Source of the DNA: a virus
Taxonomy: Duplodnaviria > Heunggongvirae > Uroviricota > Caudoviricetes
Length of the DNA: 41,465 nucleotides
Direction: 5' to 3' (one strand)
IMG/VR virus record: IMGVR_UViG_2917881069_000006
Part shown: positions 1,662 through 24,403 of the stretch, one piece after another
Layout of the letters: each line of letters opens with the position of its first letter
Position numbering within the stretch: position 1 is the stretch's first letter
The notes under the pieces: model-generated
Database searches by the model: none
Told to the model about the DNA's origin: nothing
What the model saw: the letters and a program-made list of their open reading frames with translations, nothing else
Made by a program: the position numbers and the translations under genes

Positions 1662-3738
1662 TCTACTGATTCCCCCATTTGTGCATCAGTTAACGCTTTA
1701 TGCCAAATCCTGAAATTTCGGATGTGTCCGAATATATGACGCTCACCAGTACTGGTTTGCCCACCAAATCTTATCGTAGCAGTTGGTGCTACATGAATAT
1801 AATCTGTCCTTGCAGACGATGAAAAAACAGAATTGCAAAACGCTTGAGTATCTCCATTTTCTTTACACCTAAATCCAGAGATAAACTTTCGATTTGTTGT
1901 TTTTACATACTTATTAATTCTTGTAGCGCCATCACCCATATCAACATAGGGCGATCCAGTATCAACCGCAGTCCCACCACGTAGACCATAAATTATGGCC
2001 TGCCCCGCTTTTTGACCAGTAAAATCCATTATTCTAGGTGCGGCATTTGGCGGAGAATCCCATTCCCAATTAAGATTGGTTTCGCACATTACAGTAAGCG
2101 GTAAATTGTAGATGTTGTTTTTGATTGGGATCGTAACTAAGTCACTCGCTCTTGTCGTTGTCGCAGATCCAGAAATAATAAAAGAAGAAGCACTGCTACC
2201 AACTTCAAATTGCGGTGTCGTTATCATCCACTGATCACCAATCTGTATATCTCGTTTATGCGCACCAACTTCAATTCGACCATAAAATGTTTTGTCTTCT
2301 GCGGTTTTATAAGTCAAAGATACAAACAACCATCCATTGGATTCAATTTTAGTATATACTTTCGTCGAGCTTCCGCCTGCAGGAGTTCCTAAAACTTCGC
2401 CCGTTTCCGCATTTATATAGGCATTCGAAGAAAGAGTATTACTAGAGCCATCCTCATTTACATAAGCAATCCTCGGATATACTGTCAGAATCCCATCACC
2501 AGCAACTTTTTTAACTCGGAAGGATATTGTAAGTGATTCCCCTGCCTTTGCTGGCATGGATCTTGGATATCCAGTTGAAATAAATGTAGCGCGTCCGGTA
2601 GTGCTTGTTTCGGCTGCAACATTAATAAGACCATAGGTAAAACCAAATTCATCTTTACCATTGGTTATATTCAATTGTGCGGCTTTATTCCATAACGACG
2701 GATTATTAGAATCTGCAAATGAATTGCTTCGTTGTCCTTCAATCAGTAAACCATCTTTTTCAAATCGTGGTTCGTCGATTGCTGCAATTTTCAGTTCCCC
2801 GGATTTATTGATATATGTAGCAGTTGATGCACGTTTAAACTTAACAATCTTGTCGCCAGGCATCGTTATTTCATCGTCACCAATAACAATCTTTTTATAT
2901 GATGGCGAAAAGCCCGTAATCATATCCAGCGAATCATTAAACGGAATCCAGACATCAGGCAACGGCGGAACTATATTCACATATGGTTTTACAGTCACTT
3001 CCGCTGCCGCTTCTGCGCGGTCTGCCGCCGCTTCCGAACGTGTCGCCGCCGCGACGGCTTCATCCTTTTTCTGCCCGGCCTTTGTTGCGTCTGCTGCGGC
3101 CTCCTGCGCTTTTGTGGTGGCGATTCCGGCATTTTCAGCGGCTGACTCTGCATTACGGCGGGAAGCCTCTTCACTGTTTGCGGAGGCTTCTTCTGACGCT
3201 CGGGCATTTGTCTCTGAACGTTCTGCTGCTGTTGCTGCGTTTTGTGCGGCTGTTTTTGAAGAGGCTGCCGCTTTCGCGCTGTTACCTGCATTCGTCTCTG
3301 ACGTTTTCGCCGCGTTCTTCGATGATTCCGCTGCAGTTTCGGATTTCTTTGCCGCCGCTGCGCTCTGAGAGGCAGCTTCAGCGTTTCGTGCCGTTTCTTC
3401 CAATATTTCCTCAAAACGGCGCAATGCCTCAGGCATGACATCATCTTCCGTCATGGCACCGAGAAAATCATTCAGCGTACCTGGTCTGGAACCTTCATAG
3501 ACGGTAATGATCCCGGCATGTGAAGGCGGAAAACCTTCAACCAGCAGGGTGACGCTGTACTGGCCATACTCAACATCCATGCTGTACGCCCGGCTTCATC
3601 CGGATTTTCAGAGGCTACCGTGTTCACCAGTACCGTGGTGCTGTTACGCTTTGCCTTCAGTTGAATAGTGCAGTTCTGTATTGGTTTTCCCGCACCATCT
3701 TTCAGCACACCTGAGATTTTTACTGCTGCCATATCCAC
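1658..3738 (-). pseudogene. stf: side tail fiber protein Stf, N-terminal 50 codons out of frame with the body
   Basis: N-terminal fragment MAAVKISGVLKDGAGKPIQNCTIQLKAKRNSTTVLVNTVASENPDEAGR matches the lambda Stf N-terminus, then changes frame near 3584-3588; the body (640-aa ORF from MDVEYGQYSV...) carries the Ala/Ser/Glu-rich KSETAAESSKNAAKTSE repeats typical of Stf and a divergent C-terminal receptor-binding region. Confidence 0.6.
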
Positions 3739-3796
3739 TCCACAAAAAAGCCCGCCTGAACCGGCGGGCTGTCATAACACTGTGTTACCTGGCTAA

Positions 3797-4396
3797 TCAG
3801 AATTTATAACCGACACCCACGATAAAACCGTCAGTGCGCCAGTCGCCACTGCCGGAGCCTTCATAAGCAAGGTCAATGGCCACGGATTCGGTCGGGTTAA
3901 ACTGCACGCCAGCCCCCCACGCCAGAGACGTGTTGCTGTGGCGACCGTCATCACTTCCGGTCAGCACATCGTGCGTTTTCCCCTTGTTATCAGTTACGCG
4001 GAGATAATCCCCGGAAAACGTCGAAACACGGCTGTAAGCCACACCCGCCATCGCATAAGCACTGAACCATTCATTCACGCGCACAGATGGCCCCGCCATC
4101 ATGCTGAACCAGCGGTTACGCACTGAATCTTCATGCCAGCGGGTATCGCTGTAACGGGTAATCTGGCGATTCTTGTCTCCGGCATAGCTGAATGACGTCA
4201 CCAGCCCCAGCGTGTTCGTAAATTCATAACGGTATTTCACGTTAATTCCCTTCAGGTCATCGTTGCCGGGCATATCTGTATGGGACTGAAGATACCCGGC
4301 GCTTAGTGTGGACTGATGCTCTGCTGCACTCGCTGGCGTACCAGCGGCGACCAGCCAGACTACTGCAGACAGAATAACAGCACATAATTTACGCAT
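3797..4396 (-). CDS. lom: Lom outer-membrane protein (Ail/Lom family)
   Basis: 199-aa ORF with signal peptide ([24 protein letters not shown]) and beta-barrel-like alternating pattern ending in aromatic residue (GVGYKF); lies between J and stf as in lambda. Confidence 0.85.
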
Positions 4397-4463
4397 AATT
4401 ACCTCTCGCTTTTCTGCAATAAAAAAGGCGCCATTTCTGGCGCCCGTATTTGGGTTATAAAAT

Positions 4464-7400
4464 TCAACTGATACTGATACCGGCGGTTGATTTCTTCATC
4501 ACGACAACCAGCAAATCGCTGATGCTTGCGGTGGGATAATATTTTCCATTTGAAGCTGAAACTGAAAACTCCAGAGTTATCCCTCCATAACCTGCTGGCA
4601 TATCCATGATGCCTGTGTAAATGGCTGTAACATCGGTGGTCGAGTTATCATAAATTACAGTGCCATTCTTTTTTACAATAAGGCGACAGGATGAATAGTA
4701 TTCACTGTTTGTGGATGCCTGCCGGTGCTTCGCCCCACAAAACGCGACAGCAGGAATAACAATTTGCCGGTCAAAAGGTTGATCGTCATAAATCCTGACG
4801 GTAATGGTCCCTGATGGCCAGCGTTCCGGTGCTCGGGGATCTCGCGGGAAAGCCTTACCTACCGTTTTAACAATATCGCCTTCAATCTGGTTGGCAGACA
4901 GTTTTCCCAGAATCCGACAGTTCTCGTTAATCGTGACATTATTGAGCGTCCCGGAGTTCGCATTCACGTTACCGCTGATATCGGCATTTTTCGCCGTCAG
5001 CCGCCCGTCCGGTGTCAGGGAAAATACCGGCGGATTGCCGCCGCTGGTAATGGTGGGAGCCGTCAGATACTTCAGGAACACTTCGTTCATGAATATCTGG
5101 TTGCCCTGCGCCACAAACATCGGCGTTTCATTCCCGTTTGCCGGGTCAATAAACGCGATACGGTTAGCGGCAACCAGGAACTGGCTCAGTTTACCTTCCT
5201 CCGTATCCTCCATGCTGAGGCCAAGCCCCGCGACATAATGCCTGCCGTCTTCGGTCTGCTCAATTTTGACGCCCCACATGGCATTCCATTTATCGTTGGC
5301 GTCTTTCCACTCTTTCGAAAACTCCTCCAGTTTGCTGGCGTTATCCTCCGTCAGCTCGACTTTTTCCAGCAGCTCCTTGCCGAGATGGGATTCGGTTATT
5401 TGGCCTTTGAAAAAATCCAGGTAACCTTCCGCATCATCGCTCGCCCGACCGACAGCTTCCACGAATGCCGATTTGCCAACGGTGTTCACACTGCGAACGT
5501 AAAAATAATAATCATGGCCCGGTTTGATATTGATACTGGCGGCTATCCAGTACAGCGCCGTGCCAAGATAGCGGGCTGTGGTTTCAACCTGCCTGATATC
5601 CGCAATCCGCTTTTCCGAGAACCAGAACTCAAACTGTACCGTCTGGTCATAAACGGCAAGATGCGGCGTTGCGGTTATCTGAAAATAGCCCGGCGTCAGC
5701 TCAATCCGCGACGGTGCTGCCGGTGCGGCAATCCGGAACGATACCGACGCCGGATCGCCCTGCTGCCCCCAGGCATTTACCGCCCGGACTGTCAGCCTGT
5801 AGTTTCCCAGCGCCAGTTGCGTGAAGCGGTATGTGGTTTCCGTCGTCCGGGCCGTGCTGACCAGCCGCTCACTGCCGTCATCCGCTGCCACGGTCAGGCG
5901 AAGCATAAAGCTCACACCCTTCACCACCTTCGGCGTGTCCCATCGCGCCAGTACCTGATATTCCCCGCTGTCTGCGGTGACTTCGGCAGTCAGGTGCTGC
6001 ACCGCTGGCGGCGTGACACCATTCACCGTGCCGCTCTGGTCGCCGTCAAAGTGCGCCCCGTTATCCACGATGGCTTCTTTTTCCGGTACATGCTGCACGG
6101 CGGTGATGGCATACGTGCCGTCATCGTTCTCACGGATACTCACACAGCGGAACAGGCGCTGACGCAGCGTCGGCAGCTTCAGCCCCCACACGCTGTATTC
6201 GGCAACGCCGTCAGGAACACGGCTCACTTTTACCTTCACGCCGTCGGTGACGGACTGGACCTCCACGCTGACCGGATTGCCATTTCCGTCTACCAGGCTT
6301 ATCAGCGTGGTGCCGGAGGATGGCAGCATGATTTCACGGTCGAGCGTCAGTGTCCGCGTCTGGCTGTTCACCGCCAGCACGCGCCCGCCGATGCTGATCC
6401 CCGCATAGTCATCATCACAGATTTCAATGACATCACCCGGTACATGGCGAAGCCCTTCTGCACCCACGCTGAAGTCCACGGTCTGCGTTTCCAGCAATTC
6501 CGTTTTAATCAGCCACAGCCCGGCGCGGTGCGCCTGCCCCCGGCTGGTACAGCCAAAGGCATCCATCTTCGTGACGTTACGACCGTAACGGGCAATGGCC
6601 TGCGTGTCCTCCACAAGCTCTGTTGCCGTTTCCCAGCCGTTATTCGGGTCAATCCAGTTCACCTCAACGGCATTATGGCGGTCCTTCAGGGCGCTGAAAC
6701 TGTAGCGGAACGGCGCGCCATCATCCGGCATCACCACATTACTGCGGTTATAGGTCCACACCTTATCCGACGGTCGGTCCTGCACGAACGTCAGCGTCTG
6801 CCCGTTCCATACCGGCATACAGCGCATCGCCGAGCAGAAATCACTGAGAACATCCCACGCCTTACGCTGTGTGGTCAGGTAGGCATTACAGGTGATGCGC
6901 GGCTCCGTGCCACCAAAGCCATCCGGCACCGACTGGTCGCAATTCTGGCCGATGACATACAGCGCCCATTTGTCCACATCCGCCGCACCGAGACGCTTCC
7001 CCATGCCGTAGCGCGGATGGGTCAGCATATCCCACAGACACCAGGCCATGTTGTTGCTGTATGCCGGTTTAAACGTCCCGTCCCAGATACCGCTGTATTG
7101 CCGCGTCTGCGGGTTATAGTTCGACGGCACCTGCAGAATGCGCCCGCGCAGATGATAATTACGGCTCACCTGCTGGCTGCCGAACTGCTCCGAATCCATC
7201 TGCACGCCGACCAGTGCCGTGTTCGGGTAGCACTGTTTCACATCGATGATTTCGGTGTATGACGACCAGAGTGTTTTGTTCTGCAGCTGGTCTGTGGTGC
7301 TGTCCGGCGTCATCCTGCGCATCCGGATATTGAACGGGCGCGGCGGCAGGTTATCCACCACCACCGAGGCCAGATACTGCGAGGTGGTTTTGCCCTTAAT

Positions 7401-18938: not shown

Positions 18939-22619
<3,681 letters not shown>

Positions 22620-22645
<26 letters not shown>

Positions 22646-23165
22646 TCAGCAACCCCGGTATCAGTTCATCCAGCGCGGCTGCTTTGTTCATGGCTTTGAT
22701 GATATCCCGTTTCAGGAAATCAACATGTCGGTTTTCCAGTTCCGGAAAACGCCGCTGCACCGACAGGGGGATCCCGTCGAGAATACTGGCAATTTCACCT
22801 GCGATCCGCGACAGCACGAAAGTACAGAATGCGGTTTCCACCACTTCAGCGGAGTCTCTGGCATTCTTCAGCTCCTGTGCGTCGGCCTGCGCACGCGTAA
22901 GTCGATGGCGTTCGTACTCAATAGTCCCTGGCTGCAGATCTGTCTCGCTGGCCTGCCGCAGTTCTTCAACCTCCCGGCGCAGCTTTTCGTTCTCAATTTC
23001 AGCATCCCTTTCGGCATACCATTTTATGGCGGCGGCAGGGTCATAAAGCACCTCATTACCCTTGCCGCCACCCCGCAGAACGGGCATTCCCTGCTCCTGC
23101 CAGTTCTGAATGGTACGGATACTCGCGCCGAAAATGTCAGCCAGCTGCTTTTTGTTGACTTCCAT
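22620..23165 (-). CDS. nu1: terminase small subunit Nu1
   Basis: 181 aa, MEVNKKQLADIFGASIRTIQNWQEQGMPVLRGGGKGNEVLYD..., winged-HTH N-terminus as in lambda Nu1. Confidence 0.95.
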
Positions 23166-23179
23166 TGTTCATTCCACGG

Positions 23180-23365
23180 ACAAAACAGAGAAAGGAAACG
23201 ACAGAGGCCAAAAAGCCCGTTTTCAGCACCTGTCGTTTCCTTTCTTTTCAGGGGGTGTTTTAAATAAAAACATTAAGTTACGGCGAAGAAGAACGGAAAC
23301 GCCTTAAACCGGAAAATTTTCATAAATAGCGAAAACCCGCGCGCCTTCCGCCCCGTAACGCTCCG
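23180..23365 (-). other. cos packaging site (cosB with cosN core near 23335-23360)
   Basis: Sequence upstream of nu1 closely resembles the lambda left end from memory (CGCGGGTTTTCGCTATTTATGAAAATTTTCCGGTTTAAGGCGTTTCCGTTCTTCTTCG on the minus strand); the cohesive-end core reads GGGCGGAAGGCG instead of the remembered GGGCGGCGACCT. Confidence 0.6.
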
Positions 23366-23402
23366 GATCACCGGAAAGGACCCGTAAGACAGAAGATCAG
23401 GT

Positions 23403-23612
23403 TTACCTACTGTGTAAATCTCCATCCTTCAGCCCTGTCATCAGCGCCTGATTAACTAACGGCATCAGTTCGTGAACGATGGCAAGAAACTCCAGGAAAA
23501 GTTCGTTCTGAGTCTTCTCATCTGCCTCAGCCTGTCGCTGCTCGTATTCCTTCACCTTACTTTCAAGTTGGTTAATACGTGCATTGAGTGCCTCGAAAAC
23601 AGCTACTGACAT
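23403..23612 (-). CDS. hypothetical small coiled-coil protein next to cos
   Basis: 69-aa ORF from internal Met (MSVAVFEALNARINQLESKVKEYEQRQ...) with RBS GAGG 5 nt upstream; longer 105-codon track ORF has an implausible N-terminus. Confidence 0.45.
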   Translation of the reverse strand: MSVAVFEALNARINQLESKVKEYEQRQAEADEKTQNELFLEFLAIVHELMPLVNQALMTGLKDGDLHSR

Positions 23613-23990
23613 ATCTACCTCAAAGCAATAAAAGAAATGCGTGCGGCCACGGTCGCACAGACCTGAATACACGTCCTGTTTCTTCCACCCCCGCACAGGA
23701 CTGGCGAGCATGAGGGACAACCCCGCGAATCATAAACGCGGTAAAAACCCGGTGTGCATCGTTTTTGATTATTCCCGCACACTCGCGCAGAAGGAGTTCC
23801 CCGTCGGGCTACGGTCATGGTTAATGCGGGAATACAGCGACGATACAGCGCATGATGTGTCAGGCTTGAATACCTTTATCGAATCCCGGTAACGAATTCT
23901 CCTGACGTTCCAGTCAGGTGATGATATGCATGGTGAGATTCAGATATGAAAAAGCCCCGCTAAAAGCGAGGCCATAAATCACTTAATATC

Positions 23991-24365
23991 TTATTGAGGA
24001 CGCTGGAGTAATCCGTGCTGAGCGAGAGTTAGAGCAATGTCATAAGACCCTTGCCTGTCTTTATAGCAAGTTTTATCAACTAGCTCAGCTTTGCTAATTC
24101 CGGGTAAATCAAGAATCAGATTCGCAACTTCAATTGCCCTTTGGTACAACTTACCGATCTTTTTCTCCCCATGATGTGGTTTTACATTCTTCAGATAACC
24201 GCTATCCGCCAGAGCGAGAAACGTTGCCCTTGGGCATCCCTTCTTTCTTGCCGATTCGCTTTCTGTAACCTCAGCGACAGCAGCATCCCATGCATCACGC
24301 GGGGATATTGAATTATCAGCAACCAAATAATAAGCAATTAAAGCGGCGCGCGCGTATTGAGACAT
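23991..24365 (-). CDS. hypothetical protein (moron position between spanin genes and cos)
   Basis: 124-aa ORF from MSQYARAALIAYYLVADNSISPRDAWDAAVAEV...; same strand as lysis genes; imperfect stem-loop plus T-run just downstream (about 23945-23975); no family recognised. Confidence 0.5.
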   Translation of the reverse strand: MSQYARAALIAYYLVADNSISPRDAWDAAVAEVTESESARKKGCPRATFLALADSGYLKNVKPHHGEKKIGKLYQRAIEVANLILDLPGISKAELVDKTCYKDRQGSYDIALTLAQHGLLQRPQ

Positions 24366-24403
24366 AATGCATCCATATACAAAAATCTTATGATAAGACT
24401 TTT

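Follow-up and report, generated by a model that had tools for sequence, protein, structure and literature searches.

The 124-amino-acid protein encoded between the spanin genes and the cos site of this prophage belongs to the DUF6979 family, and its gene forms a moron-type cassette of about 475 bp (approximately 23930 to 24403), made up of a single gene plus a terminator of its own and joined to Rz at its 3′ end. The protein is neither a lysis nor a structural protein, and we regard it as cargo outside the lysis and packaging machinery. Since its relatives often lie in anti-phage defence islands, it is a reasonable candidate for a factor in phage-host conflict. Our preferred reading, to which we give a probability of roughly 40%, is that of a nucleic-acid-binding conflict or exclusion factor. 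Four features of the family are described here as new: an internal duplication, the absence of structural relatives, moron behaviour in several different phage slots, and neighbourhoods within defence islands.

A one-gene cassette behind the spanin genes

The window, that is, the whole stretch of 41,465 nucleotides that was analysed, is a lambda-like Escherichia coli prophage lying on the minus strand, on which holin, endolysin, Rz/Rz1, the DUF6979 reading frame, a hairpin, small ORFs, cos, Nu1 and terminase A follow one another (Table 1). The earlier note had described a 124-amino-acid gene on the same strand, after Rz/Rz1 and before cos, and our analysis confirms it, with a start 38 nt past Rz and a strong terminator some 600 bp ahead of cos.

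Table 1. Features in and around the DUF6979 cassette (window coordinates)
Feature	Position	Strand	Details
Terminase A	20720-22645	-	
Nu1	22620-23165	-	
cosN, 12-nt cohesive end	23342-23353	-	reads GGGCGGAAGGCG
Small ORF between terminator and cos	23403-23720	-	105 aa from TTG or 69 aa from ATG 23612
60-aa ORF	23711-23892	+	translation begins MRDNPANHKRGKNPV
Approximate right-hand cassette junction	23930-23944	-	3′ flanks of L130, L141, L153 and L171 compared with the window
Intrinsic (rho-independent) terminator	23945-23973	-	GGCCUCGCU-UUU-AGCGGGGCU then UUUUUCAUA
DUF6979-family CDS	23991-24365	-	124 aa; ATG start, TAA stop
Spacer, Rz stop to DUF6979 ATG	24366-24403	-	38 nt; weak Shine-Dalgarno (GGA)
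Imperfect palindrome, A+T-rich, in the Rz-DUF6979 spacer	24378-24406		
Rz i-spanin	24404-24847/24859	-	Pfam Phage_lysis, E 4e-40; PHROG 13 / PHROG 3198 (Rz + Rz1)
Rz1 o-spanin, embedded in Rz	24457-24648/24654	-	
SAR endolysin (SAR-type lysozyme)	24835-25341	-	
Holin, S21-type (phage-21-type)	25341-25556	-	
Second low-G+C cargo region	25600-26500		G+C 0.34-0.40; upstream of holin
Four-cysteine zinc-ribbon-like small ORF	25778-25948	+	
CspA-family cold-shock ORF	26230-26445	-	KGFGFI and VFVHF motifs, by eye

A longer reading of 141 amino acids from the in-frame GTG at 24416 was rejected: the GTG is changed to GTA in one relative (L152), and a 1-nt deletion breaks the frame in another (L153). 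As neither this start nor its frame is conserved, the start is placed at the ATG at 24365, which is also where RefSeq and the annotations of phages 4A7 and SfI put it. Exact copies of the 124-residue protein are encoded on 117 E. coli contigs. Among related viral contigs, all 19 distinct alleles are intact or read through solely at the stop codon, and the median dN/dS is 0.24 (pairwise Nei-Gojobori, 153 pairs). The gene is under purifying selection, and the intact alleles together with this ratio establish the ORF as a real gene.

The hairpin that the earlier note had assigned to the gene is borne out both by a terminator scan, which gives a 9-bp stem with six G-C pairs, a 3-nt loop and a T-run at 23953-23973, and by the predicted RNA fold (-17.1 kcal/mol, z = -4.1, none of 200 shuffles equally good). 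It is kept with the gene throughout the 92-100% clade, even with differing sequence further downstream. Homology among relatives with different downstream modules ends about 60 nt past the stop codon, and in the SfI-like clade the flank diverges directly after it. On the other side, in 45 of the 48 IMG/VR loci with a close relative the distance from the end of Rz to the DUF6979 start is exactly 41 nt, whatever the holin and endolysin upstream and whatever the packaging module downstream, be it lambda Nu1/A (98-99% identity), a variant at 53%/67%, a TerL with no more than 24% identity, or the SfI type. The three exceptions are an IS66 element in the spacer (L151), a disrupted Rz and a truncated copy. 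It is this fixed offset, together with the end of homology beyond the stop codon, that sets the limits of the cassette and ties it to the Rz 3′ end.

The spacer between Rz and the gene is close to invariant in 45 of the 48 related viral loci. Its palindrome was rejected as an operator or RNA element, being no better than shuffled sequence (z = -0.96) and showing one-sided substitutions in relatives. No sigma-70 site with at least 9 of 12 consensus matches was returned by a promoter scan upstream on the gene's strand; the best candidate by eye, TTCATA-N17-TAAGAT, reaches 8 of 12, and some relatives carry mutations in its -10 element. Expression may come simply from the late transcript. The IS66-family element of L151 occupies positions 3330 to 5945 of that locus and ends just upstream of the start codon; its ORFs of 523, 115 and 225 amino acids look by eye like a transposase and two accessory genes, and the DUF6979 ORF there is intact despite the insertion.

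Cargo of the slot between Rz and cos

The earlier note placed the gene in a moron slot between the spanin genes and cos, a position that indeed carries variable cargo in related lambdoid phages: Bor on the opposite strand in PhiR34_1, an anti-repressor on the same strand in IdasGreatGrand and a KilA-N protein in PhiR49_1. This alternation of cargo supports the moron reading. The DUF6979 gene is present in some close relatives and absent from others at the same position, it has its own terminator, and its base composition deviates, with a modest difference in G+C between the gene (0.44) and the lysis (0.50) or terminase (0.53-0.57) genes. It does not belong to the Bor family, having no Bor Pfam match, no lipobox and the same strand as Rz.

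Members of the close clade occur in 248 of 5,426 complete E. coli genomes (4.6%), always single-copy and chromosomal, with no homologue on the plasmids searched, and nine of 50,697 isolated-phage records carry the gene (4A7, Lambda_4C10, 1W, 3W, D2, mEp460_4F5 and SfI). Such low prevalence, the lack of a known function and the tolerance of IS66 right at the start codon in one relative would suit a hitch-hiking passenger of no current benefit to phage or host. We consider this very unlikely in view of the low dN/dS and the intact frames in all alleles, and of a family deeply conserved over bacteria and archaea with near-invariant residues.

Some part of a 1,151-bp query (23300 to 24450) is matched by 4,769 of the 5,426 E. 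coli genomes. This query runs from the cos-proximal spacer through the DUF6979 gene into the 3′ end of Rz, and the cos-proximal part of the region at 23711 to 23892 may explain the matches. The 60-residue ORF on the plus strand corresponds to a hypothetical gene that the annotations of phage 4A7 and of E. coli prophages show here. The small minus-strand ORF next to it, with a coiled-coil-like prediction and weak PHROG matches, is annotated as hypothetical in strain Rb-50 and is found in one of the 48 related IMG/VR loci; at least 80% of the query that contains it is covered in 2 of the 5,426 genomes.

The cohesive end of the window also departs from that of lambda, which canonically is GGGCGGCGACCT. 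Among close relatives, the variant is found in L129, L132, L133, L135-137, L179 and L180, and the canonical end in L140, L144, L146, L148, L152, L177 and L178. The Nu1 and terminase A proteins that were detected in these loci share 97-99% identity with those of the window, so that 6 of the 12 overhang positions differ with an almost unchanged terminase. Upstream of the holin, the second low-G+C region encodes the cold-shock and zinc-ribbon-like ORFs of Table 1; in related prophages the slot between Q and holin is filled instead by a porin or DUF3800 gene.

A full-length DUF6979 protein with a duplicated helical domain

The earlier note had found no recognisable motif in the protein, which proved wrong: over its full length it belongs to Pfam DUF6979 (PF22399; 102.7 bits against a cutoff of 27, E 2e-29, residues 1-121 on positions 1-127 of the 127-position profile) and to PHROG 5039 (E 7.9e-69, residues 1-124 aligned with positions 1-124 of the profile), and it is already listed in RefSeq as 'DUF6979 family protein'. 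Its description as unassigned was right, as both families are catalogued without function. Scans of NCBIfam and PADLOC-DB v2 gave nothing (for PADLOC, no family at E up to 0.1), PDB sequences yielded no significant match in profile searches, and a literature search retrieved no paper containing 'DUF6979' or 'PF22399'.

Conservation was computed relative to the window protein over 92 representatives clustered at 50%, and identified A8, A11, A25, W26, A29, K42, C44, P45, F49, L52, G56, L95 and L114 as near-invariant. The window protein has the length typical of DUF6979 (120-140 residues) and these residues, including A25-W26 and K42-x-C44-P45. The enterobacterial prophage clade to which it belongs differs from the rest of the family in reading 'ALAD' and 'RQGSYDI' where 'GLCE' and 'NGQMDVV' are common.

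AlphaFold2 confidently predicts a compact all-alpha domain, both from 11 close sequences (pLDDT 91.2, pTM 0.86) and from 92 diverse ones (pLDDT 95.6, pTM 0.89), with identical secondary structure in the two runs: helices at residues 3-18, 22-33, 37-40, 43-54, 72-86, 92-99 and 107-116, and strands at 58 and 120. No solved or viral structural relative of the model was found. Comparison of the N-terminal with the C-terminal half of the family alignment (hhalign) gave a probability of 91% and an E value of 1e-6 over 48 columns, and from this homology of the halves we conclude that the domain is an internal duplication of a three-helix-plus-strand unit. Each of the two homologous units, of about 60 residues with three helices and a short strand, resembles a helix-turn-helix. 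The near-invariant Lys-x-Cys-Pro motif begins the third long helix of the first repeat. With a pI of 8.9 (family median 9.2) the protein is basic, and on inspection its sequence has no transmembrane segment, signal peptide or lipobox; it is a small, soluble, cytoplasmic protein.

Homology to a lysis or structural protein, the outcome that would have counted against a cargo role in the earlier note, was sought in Pfam, NCBIfam, PHROGs, PADLOC and PDB profiles and was not found; the protein matches no lysis family, and its model is soluble and helical. These results bear on the proposal of a lysis or DNA-packaging accessory, a partner of the spanins or of cos and terminase, which would account for the 41-nt offset behind Rz in 45 of 48 close relatives and for the position just upstream of TerS/TerL in several unrelated prophages. 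Such a role is very improbable, however: membrane and export signals are missing, the protein resembles no lysis or packaging family, the gene is absent from many related phages that share the Rz or terminase, and homologues occupy non-phage chromosomal loci in bacteria and archaea.

The 90%-identity cluster containing the DUF6979 protein also contains an unrelated 147-residue Rz 'lysis protein', which is its representative. This mixture is a clustering artefact, to which a read-through or mis-called Rz-DUF6979 ORF might have given rise, and it could mislead name transfer by putting 'lysis protein' on DUF6979 proteins.

Relatives in other phage slots and in distant hosts

With E values up to 1e-3, an exhaustive HMM search recovered 602 clusters (50% identity), almost all of them stand-alone proteins of 120-140 residues, and a word-indexed profile search recovered 899 clusters at 90% identity. 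Hosts include Flavobacteriia, Paenibacillus, Halomonas, Acidobacteriota, Treponema, Saccharimonadales and Pectobacterium, as well as methanogenic and other archaea, a sparse and very wide spread that is typical of horizontally moving genes. The profile scan of genome contigs used a 20-sequence subset and samples only members with the motif CP[RK]xAF[LF]GLC.

In unrelated prophages, distant homologues are found in several other slots of the classical moron type. The L097 group and L106 lie between the Q antiterminator and the endolysin or holin, and the L112 group follows an Rz-like spanin, upstream of TerL. The L120 group is placed inside a baseplate/PAAR module, with baseplate-assembly genes on one side and PAAR/baseplate-wedge genes on the other, and L116 separates a minor tail gene from TerS/TerL. 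The nearest non-phage relative lies in Kluyvera, in an island bounded by an integrase.

Neighbours in cellular genomes

Gene neighbourhoods were surveyed by ORF calling and all-against-all BLASTP at 80 genome loci, 72 of which had a callable gene. No neighbour family recurred in more than 5 of the 72 loci, and the gene therefore has no obligate partner. In 6 of the 72 (L016, L022, L055, L015, L083 and L045) the gene is followed on its own strand by a McrB homologue, with McrC confirmed in four of these (L016, L022, L015 and L055). The gap from DUF6979 to McrB is 5-142 nt in the three Flavobacteriia loci (L016, L022 and L055); in L015 the gene lies about 1.1 kb upstream of McrB-McrC, with two small ORFs intervening. 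DUF6979, McrB and McrC may thus form a recurrent three-gene arrangement. Genes for McrBC are rare on a per-gene basis, and it is from this general rarity that we infer an enrichment near defence genes, six loci of 72 lying far above chance.

In the sixth McrB locus, from a Bacillota MAG (L045, 8007-9437, = P0075), a 476-residue DUF6979 fusion is encoded upstream of a short McrB homologue of 493 residues. The C-terminal region of the fusion, about 350 residues, has no Pfam or PDB match; a PD-(D/E)xK-like 'PDF...VEVY' stretch in the fusion was seen by eye only and is not taken as evidence.

Other nuclease genes adjoin the family in several ways. HNH proteins are encoded at a distance of 0-30 nt in L020, L058 and L026/L008, and a homologue of the L020 protein lies 146 nt downstream in L024; in Methanolobus the HNH gene is 30 nt upstream, and in Paenibacillus the gap is 0-3 nt. 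In L031 a GmrSD gene overlaps the DUF6979 3′ end, with ZorC-like EH_Signature and ZorD-like SNF2-Mrr_cat proteins encoded upstream. A KAP NTPase and an AAA_15 ATPase also adjoin the gene, further immediate neighbours include HerA/DndH-like, PtuB-like and type II restriction endonuclease matches, and MrcB_N, SIR2_2 and HsdM adjoin it in single loci. L183 has an HsdR with Hypoth_Ymh, and L181 a UvrD-PDDEXK helicase-nuclease with HEPN, Cas1 and AbiJ_NTD5. Defence-type neighbours are thus present in at least about 15 of the 72 loci and in 3 of 9 looked-up contigs, and a sizeable share of relatives sits in housekeeping contexts (Tex, GNAT, DegT, trp operon).

The HNH neighbours raise the question of an orphan immunity protein against an HNH or colicin-type DNase toxin, which would protect the lysogen from bacterial competitors. 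An HNH or endonuclease gene indeed adjoins or overlaps the family in the Methanolobus and Paenibacillus loci and in L108, where the endonuclease overlaps, and a sporadic distribution is what an orphan gene would show. Yet most loci have no nuclease partner, the order relative to HNH is inconsistent, a basic pI is atypical of DNase immunity proteins, and the adjacent HNH proteins carry no recognisable toxin-delivery domain in the scans run, all of which makes this role highly unlikely.

The same neighbourhoods could also be read as signs of counter-defence, with a phage protein, made late or carried over, that blocks host nucleases such as those of type IV restriction (McrBC, HNH, GmrSD), its adjacency to nucleases in cellular islands then marking a built-in inhibitor or regulator. 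Recurrence beside McrBC, HNH and GmrSD genes agrees with this, as do the placement in the late operon, with late-gene orientation in every phage context found, and the lack of a detectable promoter of its own. Anti-defence genes are usually early genes; the protein is basic rather than an acidic DNA mimic, and its tight same-strand operons with McrBC (gaps of 5-40 nt) and its presence on archaeal chromosomes fit cooperation better than inhibition. We therefore hold counter-defence to be unlikely.

The helix-turn-helix-like repeats of a basic protein are, in turn, what would be expected of a pure regulator, a small DNA-binding protein that would repress or activate transcription of neighbouring genes or of a phage, whether resident or incoming, much as the anti-repressor, Rha and KilA-N cargo of the same slot, and would have no direct defence activity. 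Anti-repressor and KilA-N genes do occupy this slot in related phages, and in some loci the gene lies directly upstream of McrB or HNH genes, as a regulator might. No target or partner is conserved, however, the gene is often in the middle of an operon and not at its head, the palindrome in its leader is neither significant nor conserved, and a near-invariant cysteine and lysine are unusual for a plain repressor. A purely regulatory role is accordingly unlikely.

A candidate conflict factor

Our preferred reading, a nucleic-acid-binding conflict or exclusion factor, combines the two kinds of context. As the gene turns up both in moron slots of several phage lineages that are unrelated and next to genes of nuclease-based immunity, we infer that the protein binds nucleic acid, or an enzyme that acts on it, and functions in phage-host or phage-phage conflict. 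Mechanistically, it would be a stand-alone accessory in such conflicts. In the prophage, the gene is transcribed at least within the Q-antiterminated late transcript. Its most likely role there would be to shield the lysogen, or the prophage's own late development, from competing phages or foreign DNA, and in cellular defence islands it would act as a partner to nuclease systems such as McrBC or HNH proteins.

Several observations count against this reading. The family has no PADLOC match and no paper devoted to it, no neighbour family exceeds 5 of the 72 loci, and many contexts are housekeeping ones. An exclusion factor would be expected to need expression in the lysogen, and no consensus promoter lies upstream; furthermore, the tight linkage to Rz in the close clade could mean a role late in lytic growth.

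A more specific version, possible though improbable, would make DUF6979 a stand-alone nucleic-acid reader, in which the duplicated helix-turn-helix-like fold and a Lys-x-Cys-Pro pocket serve as the accessory or specificity component of a type IV-like restriction activity, the nuclease and NTPase modules being supplied separately (McrBC, HNH proteins or the nuclease-like C-terminal domain of the fusion). As a late-operon moron it would then provide single-gene exclusion of competing phages, possibly those with modified DNA.

For the present, the main gain is a cleaner annotation, with the ORF recognised as a real gene of a catalogued family, carried as cargo. Should the protein prove to act in defence or exclusion, the anti-phage repertoire would gain a very small, single-gene and structurally new component. 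If so, temperate phages would be moving DUF6979 between hosts in their moron slots, with bacteria and archaea keeping it beside type IV restriction, and a function would be assigned to a family of several hundred sequence clusters.

Comparison with known systems

The moron concept comes from Hendrix and colleagues, with bor and HK97 gp15 as lambdoid examples; the Hendrix/Juhala definition also asks for a promoter of the gene's own that serves expression from the repressed prophage. The DUF6979 cassette resembles lambda bor and other morons in occupying the cargo slot between Rz and cos, in consisting of a single gene with a terminator, in its deviating G+C content and in its presence in only some relatives. 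It differs from bor in that it lies on the late-gene strand, bor being on the opposite one, and in that it encodes a cytoplasmic all-alpha protein and not a lipoprotein; no promoter reaching the scan threshold was detected upstream of it.

At the level of fold, the bipartite (paired-like) helix-turn-helix region of Tc1/mariner transposases (Tc3, Sleeping Beauty, SETMAR) offers a comparison, with scores at the noise level of three-helix bundles. In contrast to these proteins, the two DUF6979 units are homologous to each other and packed as one compact domain, and the gene has no transposase context.

In type IV restriction, winged-helix readers of DNA modification are combined with HNH, PD-(D/E)XK, GIY-YIG or NTPase modules (Helbrecht et al. 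2024, PMC11037411). As no homology to these readers was detected, the analogy is one of context, and in that respect the likeness extends over several points: DUF6979 too is a small, helical, helix-turn-helix-like and basic module, encoded beside HNH or McrBC genes, joined in one case to a C-terminal extension of 350 residues, and at home in defence islands.
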